Shown: one piece after another, positions 9,760 to 31,787 of the stretch | Position numbering within the stretch: the first letter of the stretch is position 1 | Layout: each line of letters opens with the position of its first letter | Virus record (IMG/VR): IMGVR_UViG_2718218402_000003 | Strand: one strand, 5' to 3' | Source of the DNA: a virus | Taxonomy: Duplodnaviria > Heunggongvirae > Uroviricota > Caudoviricetes | Length of the DNA stretch: 33,125 nucleotides | Translations under genes and position numbers: made by a program | Notes under the pieces: model-generated | The model's input: the letters and a program-made list of their open reading frames with translations, nothing else | Databases searched by the model: none | Told to the model about the DNA's origin: nothing

Positions 9760-10160
9760 TTCCTCCCCCTTGACTAATTCATTAACACATAAACTTTGTA
9801 GTGCACGGACTAAATTGCCTTTCTGGCTTCATCACTGACAATTTTTCTGTTATTGACTATTCCTAATATAGTAGGAAAGTTCTTTAAGTGATCGGTCGTA
9901 CTCATCTATCTTTCATACTTACTCTCAACTATCAAAAGTACAGGATTTATTATGAAGTTATGGCCTGTGTTGACTGGCATTGCACTCTCTTTCACTCTTA
10001 TAGCATGTAAGGCCCCGACACCACCTAAAGGTGTGCAGCCGATTACAAATTTTGACGCCAACCGCTACCTCGGAAAATGGTATGAAATAGCTCGCTGATC
10101 TTACCCAGCAATAGTGGACACGCGGCTAAGTGAGTAAACTCTCAGTCAGAGGTGACTCAC

Positions 10161-10460
10161 ATGACAAAAACAGTATCAACCAGTAAAAAACCCCGTAAAC
10201 AGCATTCGCCTGAATTTCGCAGTGAAGCCCTGAAGCTTGCTGAACGCATCGGTGTTACTGCCGCAGCCCGTGAACTCAGCCTGTATGAATCACAGCTCTA
10301 CAACTGGCGCAGTAAACAGCAAAATCAGCAGACGTCTTCTGAACGTGAACTGGAGATGTCTACCGAGATTGCACGTCTCAAACGCCAGCTGGCAGAACGG
10401 GATGAAGAGCTGGCTATCCTCCAAAAGGCCGCGACATACTTCGCGAAGCGCCTGAAATGA
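10161..10460 (+). CDS. insE: IS3 OrfA (InsE-like)
   Basis: 99 aa from ATG 10161; HTH plus leucine-zipper-like region. Confidence 0.85.
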
Positions 10461-11323
10461 AGTATGTCTTTATTGAAAAACATCAGGCTGAGTTCAGCAT
10501 CAAAGCAATGTGCCGCGTGCTCCGGGTGGCCCGCAGCGGCTGGTATACGTGGTGTCAGCGGCGGACAAGGATAAGCACGCGTCAGCAGTTCCGCCAACAC
10601 TGCGACAGCGTTGTCCTCGCGGCTTTTACCCGGTCAAAACAGCGTTACGGTGCCCCACGCCTGACGGATGAACTGCGTGCTCAGGGTTACCCCTTTAACG
10701 TAAAAACCGTGGCGGCAAGCCTGCGCCGTCAGGGACTGAGGGCAAAGGCCTCCCGGAAGTTCAGCCCGGTCAGCTACCGCGCACACGGCCTGCCTGTGTC
10801 AGAAAATCTGTTGGAGCAGGATTTTTACGCCAGTGGCCCGAACCAGAAGTGGGCAGGAGACATCACGTACTTACGTACAGATGAAGGCTGGCTGTATCTG
10901 GCAGTGGTCATTGACCTGTGGTCACGTGCCGTTATTGGCTGGTCAATGTCGCCACGCATGACGGCGCAACTGGCCTGCGATGCCCTGCAGATGGCGCTGT
11001 GGCGGCGTAAGAGGCCCCGGAACGTTATCGTTCACACGGACCGTGGAGGCCAGTACTGTTCAGCAGATTATCAGGCGCAACTGAAGCGACATAATCTGCG
11101 TGGAAGTATGAGCGCAAAAGGTTGCTGCTACGATAATGCCTGCGTGGAAAGCTTCTTTCATTCGCTGAAAGTGGAATGTATCCATGGAGAACACTTTATC
11201 AGCCGGGAAATAATGCGGGCAACGGTGTTTAATTATATCGAATGTGATTACAATCGGTGGCGGCGGCACAGTTGGTGTGGCGGCCTCAGTCCGGAACAAT
11301 TTGAAAACCAGAACCTCGCTTAG
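10457..11323 (+). CDS. insF: IS3 OrfB transposase (InsF-like, DDE catalytic domain)
   Basis: 288 aa in the -1 frame relative to orfA with TGA/ATG overlap; matches IS3 InsF as I recall it. Confidence 0.9.
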
Positions 11324-11765
11324 GCCTGTGTCCATATTACGTGGGTAGGATCACGCCTCGAGAACTGGTTCGAACGTGGTCTGGAACAGGTCAGCGCTAC
11401 TTATGAAAAACGGAACGACGGAGGGATTCGCGTACTTAACCGTGGATACGATCCAACGAAAAACAAATGGAGCGAGAGCGAAGGTAAAGCATACTTTACT
11501 GGAGATACTAAAACTGCAGCGTTGAAAGTTTCGTTTTTTGGCCCCTTCTATGGTGGCTATAATGTAATCAAACTGGATGATGAGTATAAGTATGCTCTTG
11601 TCAGTGGTCCGAACAGAGAATACCTATGGATTCTGGCAAGGACCCAAACTATTCCAGATAATGTAAAAGCAGACTATGTGCGTACCGCTCAAAAGTTGGG
11701 ATTCAATGTCAATGAACTATTATGGGTTAAACAATAAAATCCCCACCCGAAATGATACTTATTAG

Positions 11766-14075: not shown

Positions 14076-14231
14076 TTACTCCTCAGGTTCGTAAGCTGTG
14101 AAGACAGCGACCTCCGTCTGGCCGGTTCGGATTCGTACCTCGCAGAGGTCTTTCCTCGTTACCAGTGCCGTCACTATGACGGTTAAACAGATGACGATCA
14201 GGGCGATTAACATCGCCTTTTGCTGCTTCAT
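14076..14231 (-). CDS. hokD: Hok/Gef-family type I toxin (HokD/RelF-like)
   Basis: 51 aa MKQQKAMLIALIVICLTVIVTALVTRKDLCEVRIRTGQTEVAVFTAYEPEE; AAGGAGAAG Shine-Dalgarno before ATG 14231; the track ORF extends upstream in frame. Confidence 0.85.
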   Translation of the reverse strand: MKQQKAMLIALIVICLTVIVTALVTRKDLCEVRIRTGQTEVAVFTAYEPEE

Positions 14232-14906
14232 AGCCTGCTTCTCCTTGCCTTTCGGCACGTAAGAGGCTAACCTAGATTTGCCGTTCATAGATTGAGCCTC
14301 AGATTAATGTTAAGCGTCTTGCAGGACGCGTAATGTTAACTGGGGCTTTTCTCTATCTGCCGTTGGTGTTCATGCCTGAGACAGATAGCCTCAAGCACCC
14401 GCAGCCATTCTACTTAACTCCCGTCACCTCGCCAATATGAAATCAGTCAGAAAGGCGATCCATAAGAACAACAGCAAGGCAATAAATTGCCATTACAGCA
14501 GCAATAGCCAGCGCACATTTGAGAACCAGCACCACAACCTCCTGTATTGGACGTACACCAGTCCTGATAAATATGAGGCTGTCTCGTCAGTGATTCAATA
14601 CAACTATTGGGTATAGTTTCTGTGATTTTGTTCTGTAGAAATGGAACACAACAACCAGTCACCACCAGCACTTCTTTAAATACGCCAAGTCCGACGCAAG
14701 CTAACCTTCTAGGCCGCTTTGAGCGAAGAGCGGACGCTCGCATCTGTCCCAACACACTGAGGGCTTCACGAACACCTAGGTGTACTCGTCAACTGGGAAA
14801 AAGTCAGATTATCTGTAAGCGTACAGCCTGAACCGTCTGGTCAGAATCTGACGAATTAGACAAAGTGGTGTCCACCAAATAAGTAGTGGGAACCAAAGTA
14901 TCAGAT

Positions 14907-15287
14907 ATGCAGAAAAATGTGACTCCCGGCAGGCGAAAAGGCTGCCCTAATTATCCTCCCGAATTTAAACAGCAGCTCGTTGCTGCCTCCTGTGAACCCG
15001 GGATATCCATCTCAAAACTTGCTCTTGAAAATGGCATTAACGCCAATCTGTTGTTCAAATGGCGACAACAATGGCGCGAGGGAAAGCTGCTATTACCTTC
15101 TTCAGAGAGCCCCCAGCTACTTCCTGTGACTCTCGATGCAGCTGCCGAACAGCCAGAATCGCTCGCAGAGGACCCGGAAACCCTCAGTATCAGCTGTGAG
15201 GTAACGTTCCGGCACGGGACGCTCCGCTTCAATGGCAATGTCAGCGAAAAGCTCCTGACTCTGCTGATACAGGAACTGAAGCGATGA
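14907..15287 (+). CDS. IS66-family TnpA (orf1)
   Basis: ATG at 14907 (MQKNVTPGRRKG...); the track start at 14886 is a GTG. Confidence 0.8.
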   Translation: MQKNVTPGRRKGCPNYPPEFKQQLVAASCEPGISISKLALENGINANLLFKWRQQWREGKLLLPSSESPQLLPVTLDAAAEQPESLAEDPETLSISCEVTFRHGTLRFNGNVSEKLLTLLIQELKR

Positions 15288-15631
15288 TCCCGTTACCTTC
15301 CGGGACCAAAATTTGGCTGGTTGCCGGTATCACCGATATGAGAAATGGCTTCAACGGCCTGGCTGCGAAAGTACAAACGGCGCTGAAAGACGATCCCATG
15401 TCCGGCCATGTTTTCATTTTCCGGGGCCGCAGCGGCAGTCAGGTTAAACTGCTGTGGTCCACCGGTGACGGACTGTGCCTCCTGACCAAACGGCTGGAGC
15501 GTGGGCGCTTCGCCTGGCCGTCAGCCCGTGATGGCAAAGTGTTCCTTACGCAGGCGCAGCTGGCGATGCTGCTGGAAGGTATCGACTGGCGACAGCCTAA
15601 GCGGCTGCTGACCTCCCTGACCATGCTGTAA
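15284..15631 (+). CDS. IS66-family TnpB (orf2)
   Basis: 115 aa, overlapping tnpA stop; characteristic IS66 orf2. Confidence 0.85.
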
Positions 15632-15680
15632 ATCTCTTTATCCTGGTTGTCACAGAATAAGCCCGGTAAAATACGGGCTT

Positions 15681-17219
15681 ATGAACGACATCTCTTCTGA
15701 CGACATCTTCCTGCTGAAACAGCGCCTGGCCGAACAGGAAGCGCTGATCCACGCCCTGCAGGAAAAGCTGAGCAACCGGGAGCGCGAAATAGACCATCTG
15801 CAGGCGCAGCTGGATAAACTCCGCCGGATGAACTTCGGCAGTCGTTCCGAAAAAGTCTCCCGCCGTATCGCACAAATGGAAGCCGATCTGAACCGGCTTC
15901 AGAAAGAGAGCGATACGCTGACTGGTAGGGTGTATGACCCGGCAGTACAGCGTCCGTTGCGTCAGACCCGCACCCGTAAGCCGTTCCCTGAATCACTACC
16001 CCGTGACGAAAAGCGACTGTTGCCTGCGGCGCCGTGCTGCCCGAACTGCGGCGGTTCACTGAGCTATCTGGGCGAGGATACCGCCGAACAGCTGGAGTTG
16101 ATGCGTAGCGCCTTCCGGGTTATCCGGACGGTACGGGAAAAACATGCCTGTACTCAGTGCGATGCCATCGTGCAGGCACCTGCACCTTCGCGGCCCATCG
16201 AGCGGAGTATCGCCGGACCGGGGCTGCTGGCCCGCGTGCTGACCTCGAAGTATGCAGAGCACACCCCGCTGTATCGCCAGTCAGAAATATACGGCCGGCA
16301 AGGTGTGGAGCTGAGGCGTTCACTGCTGTCGGGCTGGGTGGATGCATGCTGCCGGCTGCTGTCTCCGCTGGAAGAGGCGCTTCATGGCTATGTCATGACT
16401 GACGGCAAACTCCATGCCGATGATACCCCGGTCCAGGTACTGCTGCCGGGTAATAAGAAGACGAAGACCGGGCGGTTGTGGGCGTATGTTCGTGATGACC
16501 GCAATGCAGGGTCAGCGTTGGCACCTGCAGTGTGGTTCGCTTACAGCCCGGACAGAAAAGGCATCCATCCGCAGACTCATCTTGCCTGCTTCAGCGGTGT
16601 GCTGCAAGCGGATGCGTACGCCGGGTTCAACGAGCTGTATCGCAATGGTGGGATAACGGAAGCTGCCTGCTGGGCTCATGCCCGCCGAAAGATCCACGAT
16701 GTGCACGTCCGCATCCCGTCAGCACTGACGGAAGAAGCCCTGGAGCAGATCGGTCAGTTGTACGCCATAGAGGCGGATATAAGGGGAATGCCGGCAGAGC
16801 AGCGGCTTGCTGAACGTCAGCGAAAAACGAAACCGTTGTTGAAATCCCTGGAAAGCTGGTTGCGTGAAAAGATGAAGACCCTGTCGCGACACTCAGAGTT
16901 GGCGAAGGCGTTCGCGTACGCACTTAACCAGTGGCCGGCACTGACGTACTATGCGAACGATGGCTGGGTGGAAATCGACAACAACATCGCTGAAAATGCC
17001 CTGCGGGCGGTCAGTCTGGGTCGTAAAAACTTCCTGTTCTTCGGCTCTGACCATGGTGGTGAGCGGGGAGCGCTACTGTACAGCCTGATCGGGACGTGCA
17101 AACTGAATGACGTGGATCCAGAAAGCTACCTTCGCCATGTGCTTGGCGTCATAGCAGACTGGCCGGTCAACCGGGTCAGCGAACTGCTTCCGTGGCGCAT
17201 AGCACTGCCAGCTGAATAA
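15681..17219 (+). CDS. IS66-family transposase TnpC
   Basis: 512 aa with N-terminal leucine zipper, CxxC...CxxC zinc finger and DDE region. Confidence 0.9.
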
Positions 17220-17280
17220 CACATCCCCGTCAATACGGCCCTCGCTGTACGCTTACGATTATCTGCGTAAGTTTCAGCGT

Positions 17281-17308
17281 AAAAATTGGGCACTATAAAA
17301 GTGCCCAA
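17281..17308 (-). terminator. Rho-independent terminator of the large NTPase gene
   Basis: TTGGGCAC-tataaaa-GTGCCCAA hairpin followed on the minus strand by TTTTT; 22 nt downstream of the stop at 17330. Confidence 0.55.
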
Positions 17309-17329
17309 ACTGTAGAAAAATACATAATG

Positions 17330-20300
17330 CTATGTATCTGAGCCAAACATAGAGCGCCGCCTTGTTATTTTATAATAAGTGGGATTTTCATTATCCACCT
17401 CAAAATCAGAGAAGAAGTGGTTATCTCTTAATGCTGTTAATAAACTTTGATTAGTTGAATCAACTTCAATTTTAGGTTTGCCTCGCCCCAAAATTTTACT
17501 GAACTCCGATAAACCAAGCAGATCAAGATACTCTTTGCAAGTCGTCTTACTCAAATCCTTACCCGGCAACAAAGCGATTAGCAGTGCTATTTTATTCTGC
17601 ATATTCAGTCCCTCTGCGACAAACAGGTTTTTTAGTAACGGTTCAGAAACATCATTAGGACTTGCTATCAATGCTGATATATCCTGTATTGCTCGACTCA
17701 AGATGAGCGACTGAGTAGAGGTTCCCCAAGTTTTATAAGATGACGTCAAGATTAGAAGTTCATCTGGTTTAAAATTATTTTCTAAAATATAGTCATTAAC
17801 GACCTGAGAGTAATTCTTACTATAAATAGCCAACGGAGTTTTAACAAACTCGAGTAGCTTAACTTTCAAATCATCATCAACTTTCCAAGAAAGTATTGAT
17901 ATAGCCTCATCCAAAATAAAGTTATCAATCGTCATTAATTCAACGTATGCCCTGATATTCTTATGAATATAATAGGAAAGTTGCTCTGAATAGTTATCTC
18001 GTATGAAATTAAGTGGCGCAACATTCATACGAATAATATTTTTATCCACTAATATTTTGAACTTATCACTCGCGATATTACTAGCGCTAAAGGATGTTTT
18101 ACAAATAATATTTAGTGAGCAAATTAATTTTTCATATTTATCATTTGATAAATCATTACAGATAACAATCGATTTAAATAATTTACCTTTAAGCTCGTTA
18201 TCAATATTAATATTTTGAAAATTCAGGTCTACATCAGTTCTATTGATAAATTCGATAAGTGAGTCATCCAGTCCATCAACATGTTCAAAATAAGAGACAA
18301 TATTTTCCTCAGAGCACACTGCTCTATCTTTATCCAACAAAGATGACCATAAAGATTCGCTCTCAACCTCACTCAGAGATGTCACGAAAGTTTGCAAAGC
18401 GTTTATATACTGGCCTTTTTGTTCATCAGATATTCCCTCATTATTAAGAACGGATAAAACAATGGATTCATCATCCACGATTGAACCATCACAACTAGAT
18501 AAAACCATATCCAGATAGTCCCTAATATGGTTATTAACATAACTAGCCAAGGGAGAATCAGGTTGTGACATCACTAGTGTATAGTTCTTATGGCGAATAT
18601 CATCTTCACTATTAAGCGTGTAAACCTTACTCAGCATTAAGGTCAGGTTGGAAAAATTAATATCATAAAGTGAATGCTGGTAAACCGCATCAAAGAGTAC
18701 TTTATTTGCGTTTTCAAATTTAATACTGACAAAAGAAACGTTAAGCAACTTAAAACCACTAATTAATTTGTCAACCTTCGGTTCTGATATTGCTAAATAA
18801 CCTGCCGAATCAGAGATGTAATCAGTCAGACAATCATCAATATTAATGGCCTCGATGGCGTCATTGGCAGAATAATAAAACGTGCCTATAGAGTAGAGTT
18901 TAACCCAATCAGCAGAAAATTCACTCTCTGTCAGCGCATAAGAAAAAAACTCAGGCCACTGTGTATTTAATCGATTAATGAAGACAGGCTGAGCCCTCTC
19001 AGTTTCAAAGTAACCACGAATAAACTCAACTCTTCTATCTTTTCTTAGTTGTTTGAATAAACGTTTTATTAAGTTTACCTGGGCTGGCGTTTGAAGCAGA
19101 TAAGCTAATAAATCAAAATTAAGCGCCTCTTCCTGTTCAAAATCCACTTCTCGAAGGCGGGCAACGACCAGCTTGGGGTTCTTGAGTTGATAAGTGAACT
19201 CTTTGCCTTTTTGATCGGTAATGCTGCGTAAAAACATCTTATCAATTCGACTCAGGCTATTTTCATAAAAATAGGTCATATAGTCGGTATAGGTTTCATC
19301 AATATAACCATCACGAATAAGGTATTTAAGCAAGTCAAAATACTCACTGCTTTTTATTTCATTAAAGTCTCTTTCCTCTCCAATTTCATTGGTATAGGTG
19401 AGTTTAAATATTTCATCAATGTTTTCTCTAGTTATTACTTCTTTAAGTCTTTTGTTTCTAGAATCAACCAAACTTTCTCTTGATCTTGATATAAGCTCAT
19501 TAATTTCTTCTATTTTACCATTAAATTTATTTTCAACACTTTCTTTTCTAGCCGCCCTTCTCTTTGCTATATCAGCTTTCTCAGCCTGATTATAGTGAGG
19601 ATGATTATTATATCTAGATAATTCCTTATCGTATATAGCATCAACCTCCTGACTAGAGTTGAGTATTTCATCATTGATTGCCTCAATCTCTTTTTTTCTA
19701 TCTCTAATATCTTTTTCTATTTTCTTTATTTCTTCAATAATAAGGTTGTCTTTTTCACTAAATATGGTATAAACCATACCTTGATTAAGTTGCAACTCAC
19801 TAAAATCTCTTGGGAAAATATTCTTATAGGCAATAATGGCCAACATTTTATTACAGTCAAGTTCTGTCGTGTTTAATTTGTTATAATAAATTTGAAATTC
19901 GTTATAAATATTCTTCAATATTCTCATATCATCAATATATAAAGACATCCCTTGTAGAAATCTTTCATTGAACAACTTGAGAATACCACCACCATCAAAA
20001 TGTGTGATAAACTGATCGTAAGAGTTAGAACTATCAACAACAGGAATAACTGGAATGATATAATCAAAGAATTTGGTTCTATCCTTCGAAATGAAGATAT
20101 CATCACGAAGCAAGTAAATAAAACGTAACGTCGATTTCTTGTGCCCTGCTGTGTCCCGTTGAATATTAACCAGTCTGTTAACCTCATGAAGACGTTCAAA
20201 GATGTTATTACTATTAAAACGGTCCATGTCTTCAAAAACAATGGCATCAGCATCAACGTTCTCGAAAAGGTACAATACTTCATTTAAATATCTATCGAAA

Positions 20301-20962
20301 TAAGACTCGTTACTTTCTTCAAAAATCTCTATTTCATTACCCTGTAAATTTATTTTCTTAAGAACATTACGATTCTTTTGGGTTTTTATTAACTTGTAAA
20401 TGAAAATACAAGATAGGATAGTACATATAAACCCACTAATTAAAAGCGTATCGTATTTAGTTGATAATGTAAGTAGTGTCTTTATATTACCTTCAGATAA
20501 AAGTGAAACAAACTTTTCCCACTTATTAAATAGCGTGATATGTAGTATCATAGCGATAAATAACACCGTAAAGATGGTGTTTATCACAATGTTGTTAGTT
20601 TTTATTTTTTTCTTTACTTTAAAATGTGTCTGGGGAATATCATCAGCATTAATTTGGTGAATTAACTGGTTAAGAACTTTACCTTCTAACGCGGTTTCAT
20701 TTATATCTTTACTTGGTTCATTAGTTTCAGCTTCCTCAATCGATCTGAAATGAGCAAGTGAGATATGAACAAACTTTATATTTGAATGACTTTTCTTATA
20801 GGATTCGATAAGACTACTTTTTCCTGCGCTATATTGCCCTGATATCGCAACATTTTTTAGATCGTTATTGGCAAAAACAAAATCTATCGCATTTTTATAT
20901 ACACCCAGCTCAACATCGCTGAACGGCGTTAACTTTTGAAATTTATAGCTATCATCACTCAT
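17330..20962 (-). CDS. Large (1210 aa) membrane-inserted P-loop NTPase, KAP/YobI-like; candidate stand-alone phage-defence or abortive-infection protein
   Basis: Walker A GQYSAGKS (aa 42-49, nt about 20816-20839), two predicted TM helices (aa about 125-145 and 172-192) between Walker A and Walker B IVFEDMD (aa 241-247); coiled-coil-like segment aa about 400-500; about 950 aa of unassigned C-terminal sequence; strongly AT-rich by eye; SD GGAAGGGA upstream; own terminator. CDS is certain, function is inferred. Confidence 0.6.
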   Translation of the reverse strand: MSDDSYKFQKLTPFSDVELGVYKNAIDFVFANNDLKNVAISGQYSAGKSSLIESYKKSHSNIKFVHISLAHFRSIEEAETNEPSKDINETALEGKVLNQLIHQINADDIPQTHFKVKKKIKTNNIVINTIFTVLFIAMILHITLFNKWEKFVSLLSEGNIKTLLTLSTKYDTLLISGFICTILSCIFIYKLIKTQKNRNVLKKINLQGNEIEIFEESNESYFDRYLNEVLYLFENVDADAIVFEDMDRFNSNNIFERLHEVNRLVNIQRDTAGHKKSTLRFIYLLRDDIFISKDRTKFFDYIIPVIPVVDSSNSYDQFITHFDGGGILKLFNERFLQGMSLYIDDMRILKNIYNEFQIYYNKLNTTELDCNKMLAIIAYKNIFPRDFSELQLNQGMVYTIFSEKDNLIIEEIKKIEKDIRDRKKEIEAINDEILNSSQEVDAIYDKELSRYNNHPHYNQAEKADIAKRRAARKESVENKFNGKIEEINELISRSRESLVDSRNKRLKEVITRENIDEIFKLTYTNEIGEERDFNEIKSSEYFDLLKYLIRDGYIDETYTDYMTYFYENSLSRIDKMFLRSITDQKGKEFTYQLKNPKLVVARLREVDFEQEEALNFDLLAYLLQTPAQVNLIKRLFKQLRKDRRVEFIRGYFETERAQPVFINRLNTQWPEFFSYALTESEFSADWVKLYSIGTFYYSANDAIEAINIDDCLTDYISDSAGYLAISEPKVDKLISGFKLLNVSFVSIKFENANKVLFDAVYQHSLYDINFSNLTLMLSKVYTLNSEDDIRHKNYTLVMSQPDSPLASYVNNHIRDYLDMVLSSCDGSIVDDESIVLSVLNNEGISDEQKGQYINALQTFVTSLSEVESESLWSSLLDKDRAVCSEENIVSYFEHVDGLDDSLIEFINRTDVDLNFQNINIDNELKGKLFKSIVICNDLSNDKYEKLICSLNIICKTSFSASNIASDKFKILVDKNIIRMNVAPLNFIRDNYSEQLSYYIHKNIRAYVELMTIDNFILDEAISILSWKVDDDLKVKLLEFVKTPLAIYSKNYSQVVNDYILENNFKPDELLILTSSYKTWGTSTQSLILSRAIQDISALIASPNDVSEPLLKNLFVAEGLNMQNKIALLIALLPGKDLSKTTCKEYLDLLGLSEFSKILGRGKPKIEVDSTNQSLLTALRDNHFFSDFEVDNENPTYYKITRRRSMFGSDT

Positions 20963-21361
20963 TGATATCCCTTCCCAATCTTCACCGAGAGAGCTGGCTT
21001 TCGGAGTTAATCAAACAAAATCATGCAGATAAAATTTCGCCTTATTATAGCAGACACAACTGCAAAGATTAGCTAAAGCCTCGTTGTTTTCTTCATCTAT
21101 CCCTATAATTTTACACTACAGTTAGCACTTACTATACCTGAAAGCTTTGCTCGTAAAGAGCACAATCGCAAGTCAGCAAAGCACGACTTTGCAATCGAGC
21201 GCCGCTAAAACAGTGCTGAATCGCTACGACTTAGGCAGCCATCTTATCGGTTGGCAGATAATTTCTAACTTCCGCTTCTGGCACAAAGCGGACAACCACG
21301 ATAGCTCTATCCTGTGCCACAAAATGTCAATTCACATCTTAACTAATGCATTTTAATCTCG

Positions 21362-21784
21362 TCACTTTAATAAATACCGAACATTCCCCTGATAAAACGA
21401 CAATATGCGCTGCATAACTTCGCTTTTACGACACTCAGTACAAATTATATTATGATGCCTGTCGTAACGACGTATTTCTCCATCAGGTAATGACCAGATA
21501 AGGTCCGGATCAACCGCAGATGGTTTCTTCAGCTTTGCCCTTGAGAGCTTTTTACGGGCATTTTGCCAGTCCTTACGCGCCTGTTCAGACGGGAATAACC
21601 CGTAACCAGAATTGTATACATCACCGCTGGCAACCAGCTCTCTCGCGAGAACGCTCATCAGATATCTTGTCGCACCTGTCTTGACTTCCAGTTGTCGTAA
21701 CGTCTCACGCCCACTCTGGCGTACGAGTTCAACAACCTGCCCTTTAATTTTTTCTCGCTCTTCTTGTGTAAAAACTTTTGCCAC
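21362..21784 (-). CDS. Hypothetical phage protein (140 aa)
   Basis: ORF downstream of the replication gene on the minus strand; basic C-terminus; no family recognised. Confidence 0.4.
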   Translation of the reverse strand: MAKVFTQEEREKIKGQVVELVRQSGRETLRQLEVKTGATRYLMSVLARELVASGDVYNSGYGLFPSEQARKDWQNARKKLSRAKLKKPSAVDPDLIWSLPDGEIRRYDRHHNIICTECRKSEVMQRILSFYQGNVRYLLK

Positions 21785-25665: not shown

Positions 25666-27116
25666 AACAGTTCCGTAATAAATATCCGGTTTCATTCTTA
25701 TATGCCAGCAATGGCAGGGATTTGTTCATCCTTAAATCTGTCATGAGGTTAAAACAAATGAGTAAAGTCTTTATTTGCGCCGCTATTCCTGACGAACTGG
25801 CAACAAGGGAAGAAGGCGCTGTGGCTGTAGCCACAGCCATTGAAGCTGGCGACGAACGCCGTGCTCGAGCAAAATTTCACTGGCAATTCCTGGAACATTA
25901 TCCGGCTGCTCAGGACTGCGCTTATAAATTTATTGTCTGCGAGGATAAACCTGGCATACCCCGCCCTGCCCTCGATTCATGGGATGCTGAATATATGCAG
26001 GAAAACCGCTGGGATGAGGAGTCTGCTTCTTTTGTCCCGGTTGAGACTGAATCCGATCCGATGAACGTCACTTTTGACAAGCTGGCCCCTGAAGTACAGA
26101 ACGCTGTCATGGTTAAGTTCGACACATGTGAAAAAATCACCGTTGATATGGTTATTAGCGCACAGGAATTGTTGCAGGAAGACATGGCAACATTCGACGG
26201 ACATATCGTTGAAGCGTTGATGAAAATGCCAGAAGTTAACGCCATGTATCCGGAGCTTAAGTTGCACGCCATTGGGTGGGTTAAGCATAAATGTATTCCT
26301 GGTGCTAAATGGCCCGAAATTCAGGCAGAGATGCGCATCTGGAAAAAACGTCGCGAAGGTGAACGCAAGGAAACCGGAAAATACACGTCTGTTGTTGATC
26401 TCGCCCGCGCCAGAGCCAATCAACAGTACACTGAAAATTCAACAGGAAAAATCAGCCCGGTCATTGCTGCCATTCATCGCGAATACAAGCAGACATGGAA
26501 AACACTGGATGACGAACTGGCCTACGCTCTCTGGCCTGGTGATGTGGATGCTGGAAACATTGACGGCAGCATCCATCGCTGGGCAAAAAAAGAAGTTATC
26601 GACAACGACCGCGAAGACTGGAAGCGTATCTCGGCATCAATGCGCAAACAGCCTGATGCCCTTCGCTACGACCGCCAAACTATTTTTGGCCTTGTCCGTG
26701 AGCGTCCGATCGACATTCACAAAGATCCCGTAGCACTGAACAAATATATCTGCGAATACCTGACGACAAAGGGCGTGTTTGAGAATGAAGAAACAGACCT
26801 GAGCACTGTTGATGTTCTCCAGTCATCAGAAACACAAACTGATGCAGTGGAAACTGAGGTATCTGATATCCCAAAAAATGAAACCGCGCCGGAAGCTGAA
26901 CCATCTGTAGAGCGTGAGGGGCCGTTCTATTTCCTCTTCGCAGATAAGGACGGAGAAAAATACGGTCGCGCAAACAAACTTTCTGGTCTGGATAAGGCAC
27001 TGGCTGCTGGCGCCACTGAAATCACAAAAGAAGAATATTTTGCCCGAAAAAATGGCACATACTGAACCGCCCCGGGAATCCTGGAGACTAAACTCCCTGA
27101 GAAAGAGGTAAACAGG

Positions 27117-27443
27117 ATGACTAAAAATACACGTTTTTCCCCCGAGGTCCGTCAACGGGCAGTTCGTATGGTTCTGGAAAGTCAGGGCGAATATGACTCA
27201 CAATGGGCGGCAATTTGTTCCATTGCCCCAAAGATTGGCTGTACGCCAGAGACTCTGCGAGTGTGGGTTCGTCAGCATGAACGGGATACCAGGAGTGGTG
27301 ATAGTGGACTCACCACCGCTGAACGTCAGCGTCTGAAAGAGCTGGAACGTGAAAATCGTGAACTGCGCCGCAGTAACGATATCCTTCGCCAGGCTTCCGC
27401 TTATTTTGCGAAGGCGGAGTTCGACCGCCTCTGGAAAAAATAA
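27117..27443 (+). CDS. IS629-like OrfA
   Basis: 108 aa [22 protein letters not shown]... Confidence 0.85.
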
Positions 27444-28330
27444 TGCCACTGCTGGATAAGCTGCGTGAGCAGTACGGGGTCGGACCGGTATGCAGTGAAC
27501 TGCATATTGCCCCGTCAACGTATTACCACTGTCAGCAACAGCGACATCATCCTGATAAACGTAGTGCCCGTGCGCAGCGCGATGACTGGCTGAAGAGAGA
27601 GATACAGCGCGTATACGATGAAAATCATCAGGTGTACGGTGTGCGTAAAGTCTGGCGCCAGTTGTTACGCGAAGGTATCAGGGTGGCCAGATGTACAGTG
27701 GCGCGCCTCATGGCGGTTATGGGACTTGCCGGTGTTCTCCGGGGTAAAAAGGTCCGTACTACCGTCAGCCGGAAAGCCGTTTCCGCAGGCGACCGCGTAA
27801 ACCGTCAGTTCGTGGCAGAACGTCCTGACCAGCTGTGGGTGGCTGATTTTACTTACGTCAGCACATGGCAGGGCTTCGTCTATGTGGCGTTCATCATTGA
27901 TGTGTTTGCCGGATGCATCGTGGGGTGGCGAGTCTCATCGTCTATGGAAACGACATTCGTGCTGGATGCACTGGAGCAGGCGTTGTGGGCCCGTCGGCCG
28001 TCCGGCACAGTCCATCACAGTGATAAAGGTTCTCAGTATGTATCACTGGCCTATACGGAGCGACTAAAAGAAGCAAAACTGCTGGCATCAACAGGGAGTA
28101 CAGGTGACTCGTATGACAACGCGATGGCGGAGAGCATCAATGGTCTTTACAAAGCGGAGGTAATACACCGTAAGAGCTGGAAAAACCGTGCAGAAGTGGA
28201 ACTGGCCACACTCACGTGGGTGGACTGGTATAACAATCGACGATTGCTGGGAAGGCTGGGTCATATCCCTCCGGCAGAAGCAGAAAAAGCTTATTATGCT
28301 TCCATCAGAAACGATGATCTGGCAGCCTGA
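27443..28330 (+). CDS. IS629-like OrfB transposase (DDE)
   Basis: 295 aa in the -1 frame relative to orfA (TAATG overlap). Confidence 0.9.
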   Translation: MPLLDKLREQYGVGPVCSELHIAPSTYYHCQQQRHHPDKRSARAQRDDWLKREIQRVYDENHQVYGVRKVWRQLLREGIRVARCTVARLMAVMGLAGVLRGKKVRTTVSRKAVSAGDRVNRQFVAERPDQLWVADFTYVSTWQGFVYVAFIIDVFAGCIVGWRVSSSMETTFVLDALEQALWARRPSGTVHHSDKGSQYVSLAYTERLKEAKLLASTGSTGDSYDNAMAESINGLYKAEVIHRKSWKNRAEVELATLTWVDWYNNRRLLGRLGHIPPAEAEKAYYASIRNDDLAA

Positions 28331-29614
28331 GTTCACAGATAAAACACTCTCCAGGAAAACCGGGGCGGTTCATACACGGGCTTACCGCAAAATGTAGATA
28401 CCGCTGAAGATTCAGAACAACCAGAGCCGATAAAAGTTACCGCTGACGAAGTAAACAAAATTATGCAGGCAGCCAATATCAGCCAGCCTGACGCCGATAA
28501 GTTGCTTGCTGCATCACGTGGTGAATTTGTTGAAGGGATTAGTGACCCGAATGATCCGAAATGGGTTAAGGGGATCCAGACCCGCGATTCTGTGAACCAG
28601 AACCAGCATGAATCGGAACGGAACTACCAAAAAGCGGAACAAAACAGTCCAAATGCGTTACAAAACGAGCCAGAAACGAAACAGCCTGAACCAGTGGCGC
28701 AACAGGAAGTGGAAAAAGTCTGCACCGCCTGCGGTCAGACCGGCGGCGGCAACTGCCCTGATTGTGGCGCGGTGATGGGCGACGCAACATACCAAGAAAC
28801 ATTCGATGAAGAGTATCAGGTTGAAGTTCAGGAAGATGATCCGGAGGAAATGGAAGGCGCTGAACATCCACACAAGGAGAACACTGGCGGCAATCAGCAT
28901 CACAATAGCGATAATGAAACTGGCGAGACGGCAGATCACCCAATTAAGGTGAACGGTCATCACGAAATCACATCCACCAGCAGGACGTGTGACCATCTAA
29001 TGATCGACCTTGAAACCATGGGAAAAAATCCTGATGCCCCGATCATCTCAATAGGTGCAATATTTTTCGATCCGCAAACCGGAGATATGGGACCGGAATT
29101 TAGTAAGACTATCGATCTGGAAACTGCTGGCGGAGTCATTGATCGGGACACCATTAAATGGTGGCTTAAGCAATCACGCGAAGCGCAATCTGCCATTATG
29201 ACCGATGAAATCCCGTTAGATGATGCACTGTTACAATTGCGGGAATTTATCGACGAAAACTCCGGTAAATTTTTTGTTCAGGTTTGGGGAAATGGAGCCA
29301 ACTTCGACAACACGATTTTGCGCCGTTCATACGAACGGCAGGGGATCCCCTGCCCGTGGCGTTACTACAACGATCGCGATGTACGCACAATCGTTGAGCT
29401 GGGGAAAGCCATAGACTTCGATGCCAGAACGGCTATTCCATTCGAAGGTGAGCGCCATAATGCACTTGATGACGCCCGTTACCAGGCAAAATACGTTTCA
29501 GTTATCTGGCAAAAACTGATCCCGAGTCAGGCTGATTCTTAATGTTCAACTGTCGCCGGTTGTGACTGGTATTCTGCAACCGGCGCTCGTCTGATGTAAG
29601 AGATAAAGAAATCG

Positions 29615-29905
29615 ATGAGCGAAGTAATCATGATTGTCTCTCCCGGCAAATGGGTATCCGAAGAGCAGTTAATTGCGCTGAAAGGAATAAAAAAAGGTAC
29701 GTTAAAAAAGGCCCGGGAAAAATCGTTTATGGAAGGAAGGGAATATAAGCATGTCGCTCATGACGGTATGCCATGGGATAACAGTCCATGCTTTTACAAC
29801 CTGGAAGAAATTGATCGCTGGATTGAGCGCCAGGCATCAGCGAGACCAAGAGTAACCGGCTCATTTAAACCGTCTGGTCTGTTTCCTCCGGCTCTACAAA
29901 AATAA
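29615..29905 (+). CDS. Excisionase-like protein (putative Xis)
   Basis: 96-aa ORF between the exonuclease and int; assignment by position and size only; its 3' end abuts an IS remnant. Confidence 0.4.
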   Translation: MSEVIMIVSPGKWVSEEQLIALKGIKKGTLKKAREKSFMEGREYKHVAHDGMPWDNSPCFYNLEEIDRWIERQASARPRVTGSFKPSGLFPPALQK

Positions 29906-30582
29906 TGTCCATCATTTTTAATGGACACTATCGTATGAAACACCGGACCTGGATCACTGAAGCTTTACGTCTTCACTTTGAAGAACATTTACCCCGGGTT
30001 GTGGCCGGGCGTCGCCTGGGTGTACCAAAATCAACAGTTTGTAGTATGTTCGTGCGCTTTCGGAGAGCTGGCCTTTCGTGGCCTTTGCCCGCAGGCATGT
30101 CGGAGCAGGAACTTGATGCCTGCCTTTACGGACAATTTTCCACGGTACCAGTCGTACGTCCTGAAAGCACCGTTATATCCGAAGCCCCCGTGGTAAAAAA
30201 ACGTCCCCGGCGGCCCAACTTCCCTTATGAGTTTAAAATCGCCTTAGTGGAGCAGTCACTGCAGCCCGGAGCCTGTGTGGCGCAGATCGCCCGGGAAAAC
30301 GGAATCAACGATAACCTGCTCTTCAACTGGCGCCATCAATACCGGAAAGGTGGCCTGCTGCCTTCCGGAAAAAATATGCCGGCACTGCTTCCCGTGACGT
30401 TAACGCCGGAGCCGGATAATAAAATCCCGGCCCCCGCACAGGAACCAGAGCAGATAAATACACCGTCCGACAGTCTGTGTTGTGAGCTGATTCTGCCGGC
30501 CGGAACTCTCAGGCTTAAAGGTAAACTGACGCCGGCGTTATTACAGACACTTATCCGCGAAATGAAAGGGAGCAGCCACTGA
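29905..30582 (+). CDS. Chimeric ORF: unidentified HTH-like N-terminus fused to an IS66-family TnpA homologue
   Basis: C-terminal part (from about aa 95: [20 protein letters not shown]...[16 protein letters not shown]...) parallels TnpA at 14907-15287; N-terminal part ([11 protein letters not shown]...) does not. Confidence 0.45.
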
Positions 30583-31787
30583 TGATATCTCTCCCTGCCG
30601 GTTCTCTGGGATGTGATGTGTCAGAGCAACTGGAGCTTATCAGCAGCGCCTTTAAGGTTATCGAAACACAACGTCCGAAACTGGCCTGTTGCCGGTGCGA
30701 CCATATCGTGCAGGCACCGGTGCCTTCAAAACCCATTGCACGCAGTTATGCCGGAGCGGGGCTCCTGGCCCATGTCGTCACCGGAAAATATGCAGACCAT
30801 CTGCCGTTATACCGCCAGTCAGAGATATACCGCCGTCAGGGTGTGGAGCTGAGCCGTGCCACACTGGGGCGCTGGACTGGTGCCGTTGCTGAACTACTGG
30901 AGCCGCTGTATGACGTCCTGCGCCAGTATGTGCTGATGCCCGGTAAAGTCCATGCTGATGATATCCCCGTCCCGGTCCAGGAGCCGGGCAGCGGTAAAAC
31001 CCGGACAGCCCGGCTGTGGGTCTACGTCCGTGATGACCGTAACGCCGGTTCACAGATGCCCCCGGCGGTCTGGTTCGCGTACAGTCCGGACCGGAAAGGT
31101 ATCCATCCACAAAATCACCTGGCCGGTTACAGCGGTGTGCTTCAGGCCGATGCTTACGGTGGTTACCGGGCGTTATACGAATCCGGCAGAATAACGGAAG
31201 CCGCGTGTATGGCTCATGCCCGGAGAAAAATCCACGATGTGCATGCAAGAGCGCCCACCGACATCACCACGGAAGCCCTGCAGCGTATCGGTGAACTGTA
31301 TGCCATCGAGGCAGAGGTCCGGGGCTGTTCAGCAGAACAGCGTCTGGCGGCAAGAAAAACCAGAGCCGCGCCACTGATGCAGTCACTGTATGACTGGATA
31401 CAGCAACAGATGAAAACACTGTCGCGTCACTCAGATACGGCAAAAGCGTTCGCATACCTGCTGAAACAGTGGGATGCACTGAACGTGTACTGCAGTAATG
31501 GCTGGGTGGAAATCGACAACAACATCGCAGAGAACGCCTTACGGGGAGTGGCCGTAGGCCGGAAAAACTGGATGTTCGCGGGTTCCGACAGCGGTGGTGA
31601 ACATGCGGCGGTGTTGTACTCGCTGATCGGCACATGCCGTCTGAACAATGTGGAGCCAGAAAAGTGGCTGCGCTACGTCATTGAACATATCCAGGACTGG
31701 CCGGCAAACCGGGTACGCGATCTGTTGCCCTGGAAAGTTGATCTGAGCTCTCAGTAAATATCAATACGGTTCTGACGAGCCGCTTAC
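30140..31787 (+). mobile_element. Defective IS66-family element (internal deletion; left end degenerate)
   Basis: Right IR ...CAATACGGTTCTGACGAGCCGCTTAC ending 31787; left-IR-like sequence only partially recognisable around 30136-30170; tnpB and the 5' third of tnpC are absent. Left boundary is approximate. Confidence 0.55.
30582..31757 (+). CDS. N-terminally truncated IS66-family transposase (tnpB-start/tnpC fusion)
   Basis: 391 aa; MISLPAGS resembles the TnpB start MIPLPSGT; from [16 protein letters not shown] it aligns to TnpC residues about 128-512 of the intact copy. Confidence 0.8.

Follow-up and report, generated by a model that had tools for sequence, protein, structure and literature searches.

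A Probable Divergent Member of the YobI-Family Tmn Anti-Phage Proteins as Cargo of a Degraded Prophage in Escherichia coli

INTRODUCTION

What is the role of a single long, AT-rich gene that lies among the remnants of a prophage? This question is raised by a 33,125-nucleotide stretch of DNA (IMG/VR record IMGVR_UViG_2718218402_000003; the whole stretch is referred to here as the window), which corresponds to positions 4409101 to 4442225 of the chromosome of Escherichia coli D1 (NZ_CP010134.1). The gene (positions 17330 to 20962 of the window, minus strand), at 4426430 to 4430062 of the chromosome, encodes a protein of 1,210 residues, WP_001278661.1. It had been proposed, from the sequence alone (the original prediction), to be an undescribed single-gene defense system based on a membrane-inserted P-loop NTPase. 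Our results indicate that the gene, which is cargo of a degraded Qin-like prophage, probably encodes a divergent form of Tmn, an anti-phage system made up of a single YobI-family protein.

Tmn is a single-gene defense system whose discovery is attributed by later papers to Gao et al. 2020. Synergy of Tmn with Gabija, Septu I, and PrrC has been shown, and a Dhillonvirus phage encodes an anti-Tmn protein. The tested variants (from ECOR25, ECOR70, b1359, Pseudomonas aeruginosa LN11, and a Klebsiella pneumoniae strain) all protect against lytic phages. Canonical Tmn genes are found in the leading region of conjugative plasmids beside toxin-antitoxin systems, and a role in plasmid maintenance has been proposed for them; VapC and YhaV were seen as neighbors. 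A 2026 preprint divides Tmn into ten clades and describes a decameric membrane assembly whose arm architecture is conserved in all ten, with TM-scores of 0.8 or more reported between clades. Each cytosolic arm has a coiled coil as its proximal part and, as its distal part, an ARM/HEAT-like solenoid with 8 ARM-like and 7 HEAT-like repeats. In the same preprint, one variant, Tmn-25, is activated directly by the phage T2 protein RIIB; ATP turnover then rises, Mg2+ is selectively exported, and plasmolysis occurs with no detectable depolarization. The authors allow that homologs may answer other triggers or export other ions. The published phylogeny comprises 785 sequences, proteins with less than 50% profile coverage having been excluded. 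In its clades Ia and Ib, which occur only in Enterobacteriaceae, the median protein length is ~1,270 residues, while clade VII is found, for example, in Sutcliffiella and clade VIII in Shewanella; a clade VIII variant protects.

RESULTS

The protein has a YobI-type NTPase domain with a predicted membrane hairpin

The coding sequence is complete, with an ATG start and 1,210 codons plus a stop, and is identified as a divergent YobI/Tmn-family transmembrane P-loop NTPase by the open reading frame list, the Prokaryotic Genome Annotation Pipeline (PGAP), Pfam, and PADLOC taken together; the PGAP/RefSeq coordinates are identical to those given above. The sole Pfam domain is YobI-ATPase (PF20693), which confirms the YobI-like character that had been proposed. 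The match (E = 8.3e-123; 410.9 bits against a cut-off of 27) covers positions 1 to 363 of the 363-position profile and lies at residues 22 to 398, including the membrane hairpin (window 19769 to 20899; the features of the gene, its signals, and its cassette are all given for the minus strand).

The Walker A motif, GQYSAGKS (residues 42 to 49; 20816 to 20839), and the Walker B motif (residues 241 to 247) with its adjacent arginine, IVFEDMDR (residues 241 to 248; 20219 to 20242), were identified by motif and by alignment. Conservation of these motifs in homologs had been named as decisive for the prediction: the glycine and lysine of Walker A are kept in 51 of the 52 subfamily members aligned, and FEDxDR is invariant in all 52 as well as in 6/6 canonical Tmn proteins.

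In agreement with the original prediction, the stretch from Walker A to Walker B contains two hydrophobic segments. The first (residues ~122 to 148; 20519 to 20599) has a Kyte-Doolittle maximum of 2.29 and the second (residues ~170 to 193; 20384 to 20455) one of 2.16, and both are predicted transmembrane helices. An AlphaFold2 model, built from the 52-sequence alignment and numbered such that model residue n is protein residue n+10, has helices at protein residues 122 to 153 (model 112 to 143) and a helix at 170 to 196 (model 160 to 186). The Lys/Arg-rich flanks of the two segments fit a hairpin with both ends in the cytoplasm.

The prediction had also likened the protein to the KAP family. 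Pfam KAP_NTPase (PF07693) gave no match at E <= 1, and we reject KAP membership on this ground, though older literature applies the KAP label to Tmn. PHROGs held no family for the protein, and NCBIfam returned only a chance-level match. NCBIfam has no model for canonical Tmn either, so no testable hidden Markov model lies behind the name "anti-phage transmembrane ATPase" given by PGAP.

The catalytic core of Tmn is conserved, and the arms are colinear with those of Tmn

The best match in PADLOC is Tmn (PDLC02220; E = 1e-66), with residues 9 to 439 aligned to positions 27 to 474 of the 1,273-position profile (35%), followed by a second stretch in which residues ~459 to 628 match positions 539 to 712 (E = 2e-13). 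YobI-family transmembrane NTPases are already known as Tmn, and the claim that the system is undescribed does not hold. The subfamily as a whole matches the Tmn profile with E values of 1e-60 to 1e-78 and a coverage of at most ~50%, compared with 100% coverage and 2,046 bits for the Tmn-25-type protein. BLASTP against the canonical plasmid "anti-phage transmembrane ATPase" gave 26% identity over residues 4 to 612 (E = 5e-55) and no alignment beyond.

For residue-level comparison, QME46678.1, encoded on pRHB33-C12_2 and of the E. coli plasmid clade Ib type, was used in place of Tmn-25. Mutations had been made at 15 positions of Tmn-25, and at every one of them QME46678.1 has the residue expected; for this reason it can serve as the numbering reference. 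Identity to this protein drops from ~28% across the NTPase domain to 17.5% in the proximal and 14 to 16% in the distal region. In a joint alignment, 9/9 of the NTPase residues that are essential in Tmn-25 are conserved in WP_001278661.1: G66/K67 correspond to G47/K48, Y262 to Y231, D276/R279 to D245/R248, N297 to N266, K325/F326 to K297/F298, and R374 to R347. All are invariant or nearly so in the 52 subfamily members.

Beyond the NTPase domain, ~950 residues had been described as unassigned. Pfam in fact leaves ~810, and profile-profile alignment with hhalign, in which 52 relatives of WP_001278661.1 were compared with five canonical Tmn proteins, assigns these to the Tmn arms. The full-length comparison aligned 1,147 columns (E = 1.7e-73). 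The proximal region alone gave a probability of 98.2% (E = 3.8e-14), and the distal region alone gave 96.4% (E = 1.3e-9), with 417 columns aligned colinearly. In 11 control comparisons, ten with shuffled columns and one reversed, the E values were 0.3 to 0.8. These alignments indicate that the C-terminal ~800 residues are homologous to, and colinear with, the proximal arm and alpha-solenoid distal arm of Tmn.

By PADLOC, hhalign, and the structural model, the proximal arm spans residues ~399 to 640 (19043 to 19768). It opens with long helices or a coiled coil and ends in a conserved helical block, and in length it falls short of the Tmn-25 arm. The distal arm, an alpha-solenoid at residues ~641 to 1165, is followed by a small C-terminal alpha/beta unit at ~1166 to 1210 (17333 to 19042 together; model, hhalign, and Foldseek), and this part is presumed to sense the trigger.

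A further YobI-family protein links the two groups. A protein of 1,201 residues encoded on plasmid p1 of Paracoccus sediminicola (L010:2387-5989; loci used for comparison are numbered L001 and upward) and annotated only as "ATP-binding protein" was found with a canonical Tmn query, to which it aligned over the first half, and ~1,030 residues of it align with WP_001278661.1 (E = 2e-81). Judged by these alignments, it bridges canonical Tmn and the group of the window protein, and is a useful intermediate.

The predicted structure resembles the Tmn architecture in its order of parts

The AlphaFold2 model has a mean predicted local distance difference test score of 81.6, which rises to ~90 across residues 600 to 1190. 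From the N terminus onward, an alpha/beta NTPase core is followed by the helical hairpin, by long helices, by an unbroken solenoid-like series of ~38 short helices, and by a small alpha/beta C-terminal unit. The long helices after residue 400 bear out the coiled-coil-like segment noted earlier. The number of short helices is roughly in line with the 8 ARM-like plus 7 HEAT-like repeats described for Tmn, an agreement that is only soft because the region boundaries were chosen by ourselves. Foldseek neighbors in the PDB are HEAT/ARM solenoids and ORC/STAND-type ATPases, at full-length TM-scores that are low and indicate the fold class only.

The gene is carried by a 4.1-kb cassette in a variable prophage slot

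The host element is a Qin-like lambdoid prophage integrated beside rspAB. Within it, the gene is located between the early-region gene for DUF977 (21362 to 21784) and hokD/sok (14076 to 14400; sok was confirmed by Rfam). In a sibling prophage of strain IrN (L005), the same slot contains an unrelated gene for a 495-residue protein, "P-loop ATPase, Sll1717 family" (WP_000354584.1; L005:7784-9271). Homology between the two prophages ends at 14478 and returns at 21279 of the window (slot, 14479 to 21278). Because unrelated cargo is found in L005 and homology is broken between these two points, the DUF977-hokD interval can be considered a variable cargo slot or hotspot, and the cargo position near hok that had been suggested is the correct one. 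WP_000354584.1 has no Pfam domain and a weak match to a PADLOC candidate model (PDC-M28C; E = 4e-5); it is a candidate defense gene.

The mobile unit is smaller than the slot. It is a single-gene cassette of 4.1 kb present in three unrelated contexts. Its main body (17257 to 21294) consists of the gene with 332 bp upstream and 73 bp downstream and displays 94 to 97% DNA identity to copies in Klebsiella (L011) and Serratia (L014). Its distal end (14714 to 14819) has been split off by ISEc8 and is contiguous with 17257 in L001, L011, and L014. A search of the cassette for a second gene or a structured RNA yielded only short, chance-like open reading frames, and the sole Rfam match was sok, outside the cassette. 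The exchange of cargo in L005 and the cassettes in Klebsiella and Serratia support the earlier view of a horizontally acquired, single-gene defense cargo.

The Klebsiella copy sits on the margin of an integrase/IS110 island, next to methylase and HNH genes, a setting that looks like a defense island. Genes for an HNH-like protein and a methyltransferase are found on one side, and IS110, a tyrosine integrase, AlpA, AAA_25, a DNA methylase, and then HNH on the other (L011:5350-6941 and 15395-19633). In Serratia liquefaciens, the cassette stands alone among housekeeping genes. Beside it, outside the shared DNA (L014:11913-13316), are a 103-codon open reading frame with no Pfam match and a gene for an orphan P-loop protein of 205 residues, which has a weak thymidylate kinase match (E = 9e-9) in addition to AAA-type matches.

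The insertion sequence (IS) noted alongside the gene is ISEc8 of the IS66 family (tnpA, tnpB, and transposase; ~14816 to 17256). It is inserted 73 bp past the stop codon, just beyond the terminator described below. When its two flanks are compared with a carrier that lacks the interruption, they share 9 bp, which fits a target-site duplication. We considered the IS as part of the mobile unit and rejected this, as other carriers have no IS at this junction; ISEc8 is a later, strain-specific insertion. In strain E21845, an IS3 element occupies the gap between cassette and hok instead. The 235 bp between hokD/sok and the cassette end (14479 to 14713) have no match in L005 or in the Klebsiella and Serratia cassette copies and may be a remnant of an earlier insertion.

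The gene is rare in E. coli, shared with other genera, and under purifying selection

Among 5,426 complete E. coli genomes, 32 carry the gene, always on the chromosome, and 31 of these copies are at least 99% identical to that of the window. In 31/32 of the carriers, the 3.6-kb reading frame has remained unbroken. Versions that are 92 to 97% identical are present in Shigella, Klebsiella, Serratia, Yersinia, Pectobacterium, Enterobacter, and Morganella. When 1.84 billion cluster representatives were searched exhaustively with residues 11 to 1210 as the query, 4,702 clusters were returned at E <= 1e-3 and 2,468 at E <= 1e-30, and in well over 100 clusters (defined at 50% identity) the alignment extends from end to end, the best of these reaching an identity of only 48 to 51%. 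The nearest relatives outside the Enterobacterales are metagenome sequences (48 to 52% identical), and named relatives come from Fusobacterium (37 to 39% identical), Cetobacterium, and Ruminococcus. Given these named relatives, a low-GC origin would fit the AT-richness of the gene, which had been pointed out and is evident from a GC content of 32.7% in the coding sequence (30% at third codon positions) versus 46.6% in the window.

The ratio of nonsynonymous to synonymous substitution rates (dN/dS) among the E. coli, Klebsiella, and Serratia copies is 0.24 to 0.26 overall, pointing to purifying selection on the gene. By region it is 0.12 to 0.21 in the NTPase domain, 0.07 to 0.13 in the proximal arm, and highest, 0.28 to 0.46, in the distal arm, which is the pattern that would be expected of a conserved engine and a diversifying sensor. 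The dS values among these copies are only 0.08 to 0.17. Divergence between these enterobacterial genera is generally much larger. Because dS is small against that divergence, we infer that the cassette copies spread horizontally and recently.

Expression signals flanking the gene

The gene had been credited with its own ribosome-binding site, promoter-like region, and terminator. An intrinsic terminator was found at 17308 to 17286, 22 nt past the stop codon, with a 9-bp stem that includes 5 GC pairs and a T-run. A Shine-Dalgarno-like sequence, GGGAAGGGA, can be read 5 nt 5' of the ATG (20968 to 20976) and is the putative ribosome-binding site. The promoter fared less well: a candidate extended -10 element, TGcTATAAT, lies ~80 nt 5' of the ATG (21044 to 21052), but it is only consensus-like, and the evidence for it is weak. 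The promoter scan gave no site in the gap upstream of the gene and no enrichment overall (10 sites versus 18.4 in shuffled sequences). Lack of a good -35 element accounts for the fact that the scan did not report the candidate.

Other features of the host prophage

The prophage shows heavy decay at 9952 to 11737, 25758 to 29542, and 29615 to 31757 of the window: the lipocalin gene (blc) and the exonuclease gene are interrupted by IS3 copies, and a partial ISCro1 element adjoins the excisionase gene. Left of the genes for lysis and cold shock (~5100), the window passes into a CP4-44-like module (antirestriction, YeeU/CbtA toxin-antitoxin, and DUF4942). The related prophage of strain E21845 has terminase and head genes where the window has this module.

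DISCUSSION

An anti-phage role for the gene is almost certain, as it behaves the way a defense gene would. It is a single-gene cassette with its own terminator, occupies a variable slot, occurs in three contexts, and is scarce in E. coli. Together with the conserved catalytic core and the colinear arms, this leads us to regard membership in the Tmn system, as a divergent branch, as the probable identity of WP_001278661.1.

A number of observations weigh against this identification. The PADLOC Tmn profile is covered to ~35% by the best stretch and to ~49% by both stretches combined, and the published phylogeny required at least 50%; by that filter, the protein may lie outside the ten described clades. 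The last 310 residues, the second half of the distal arm, gave no significant match to canonical Tmn when compared alone (hhalign E = 0.006). In the proximal arm, the segment that contains F506, essential in Tmn-25, is absent, and Y541, essential as Y541A/R544A, corresponds to R469, an arginine in the enterobacterial lineage; the alignment within coiled-coil sequence is uncertain at both places. (The Y541 position is Tyr in 41/52 subfamily members, and R544 is kept as R472, with the same uncertainty.) A tblastn search of 50,697 phage genomes gave no match. One carrier, strain NN5 (NZ_CP126348.1, 2217077 to 2222977), has the gene in three pieces over 5.9 kb, with IS5-like (ISKpn26) and IS903B transposases under the match, and this copy appears to be inactivated. 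The AT-richness of the gene (32.7% GC in a genome of ~50% GC) makes it a likely H-NS target, so that it may be silenced in E. coli. The reference mechanism comes from one preprint, one variant (Tmn-25), and an 11.6-A map. Finally, the literature found contains no experiment on WP_001278661.1 or its subfamily, and the accession is not mentioned in the papers and supplements searched.

If WP_001278661.1 works as Tmn-25 does, it would oligomerize in the inner membrane with its NTPase halves and arms in the cytoplasm. A phage protein from the early stage of infection would engage the arms, and such contact, when productive, would raise ATP turnover by the NTPase. By the same analogy, ATP would fall and Mg2+ would leave the cell, the cytoplasm would then shrink, and phage development would stall; ATP-sensing systems might be activated in turn. 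The original prediction named membrane depolarization as a phenotype to look for; plasmolysis, as reported for Tmn, is the more apt expectation. As the arms are only ~14 to 17% identical to those of the Tmn-25-type protein, the trigger and the phage range are expected to differ from those of Tmn-25.

The arms also prompt the strongest of the alternatives, that this is an arm-sensing defense protein of the YobI family whose output is unlike that of Tmn-25, be it export of another ion, damage to the membrane in a true abortive infection, or simply the depletion of ATP. A divergent, shortened proximal arm would change the coupling between sensing and the membrane hub, and the missing F506 segment, the arginine at the Y541 position, and the low arm identity all lend themselves to this explanation, as does the latitude that the Tmn authors allow for triggers and ions in homologs of a mechanism known from a single variant. 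Yet the catalytic-core residues and the transmembrane hairpin are all conserved, the whole protein is colinear with Tmn, and the arm architecture is conserved across the ten clades of the Tmn study, and on balance we think a different output unlikely.

Still less probable is a main role in mobile-element conflict or carrier maintenance (plasmid or prophage exclusion, or an addiction-like function) rather than in protection from lytic phages. The proximity of the gene to the hokD/sok toxin-antitoxin locus in a prophage, and the position of canonical Tmn by toxin-antitoxin systems in plasmid leading regions with its proposed maintenance role, would suit such a function. However, the Serratia cassette has no mobile-element backbone around it to maintain, and every Tmn variant tested protects against lytic phages. 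We consider it highly improbable that the gene is foreign DNA that lies silent or is decaying and serves no present purpose in E. coli: its likely targeting by H-NS, the IS-ridden prophage, the one carrier whose copy is split by IS5 and IS903, and the weak promoter evidence are outweighed by a frame intact in nearly all complete carrier genomes at almost uniform identity, a dN/dS of ~0.25, and invariant catalytic motifs.

Like the Tmn-25 type, WP_001278661.1 is the product of a single gene, has YobI-ATPase as its sole Pfam domain, and has two transmembrane helices between Walker A and Walker B. The order of proximal helical arm, distal alpha-solenoid, and small C-terminal alpha/beta unit is the same, the lengths are similar (1,210 and 1,268 residues), and both are carried on mobile elements near toxin-antitoxin loci. 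Unlike the plasmid-borne Tmn-25 type, the gene studied here is chromosomal and prophage-borne, with 33% GC, and the two proteins differ at the proximal-arm positions and in the arm identity discussed above. Clades Ia and Ib do not fit, since the protein is shorter, at 1,210 residues, and is found in several enterobacterial families. Clades II to IX include divergent YobI-family proteins with variable arms, and WP_001278661.1 may belong within or beside one of them.

Bacillus subtilis YobI, the namesake, belongs to the same Pfam family (PF20693). It is similar in length, with ~1,200 residues, and comes from a low-GC organism; we found no functional characterization of it in the literature. KAP NTPases (PF07693; F plasmid PifA and Enterococcus faecalis EF_KAP) are likewise membrane-associated P-loop NTPases implicated in phage exclusion, and earlier papers labeled Tmn a KAP NTPase. 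According to the Tmn preprint, however, KAP transmembrane helices lie outside the P-loop domain, while two helices inside it are the YobI signature, and the protein described here has its two helices inside and lacks a Pfam KAP_NTPase match. In contrast to STAND/Avs NTPases, it has no separate effector domain, is membrane embedded, and has another domain order; those proteins form tetramers, whereas the Tmn reference assembly is a decamer.

We tentatively raise a broader scenario, which the evidence makes possible but rather doubtful. The protein may represent a large, low-GC branch of Tmn-like proteins that detection and phylogeny have largely missed through partial profile coverage, and that entered the Enterobacterales recently by way of the 4.1-kb cassette. 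With a proximal arm that is shortened and a distal arm that looks unrelated, it would respond to a different phage trigger, and its output might be something other than Mg2+ export.

Our analysis is mainly a correction, in that the candidate falls in a family for which a name, detection models, an inhibitor encoded by a phage, and a proposed mechanism were on record before. Its value is practical: an E. coli prophage supplies a very divergent Tmn variant in a compact, native package, in which the whole catalytic core has been kept while the arms are almost entirely different. The results also suggest that filters based on profile coverage undercount Tmn-like genes. As a comparison partner for Tmn-25, this protein would allow us to ask if trigger specificity is determined by nothing but the arms, and if the family as a whole has plasmolysis as its output.

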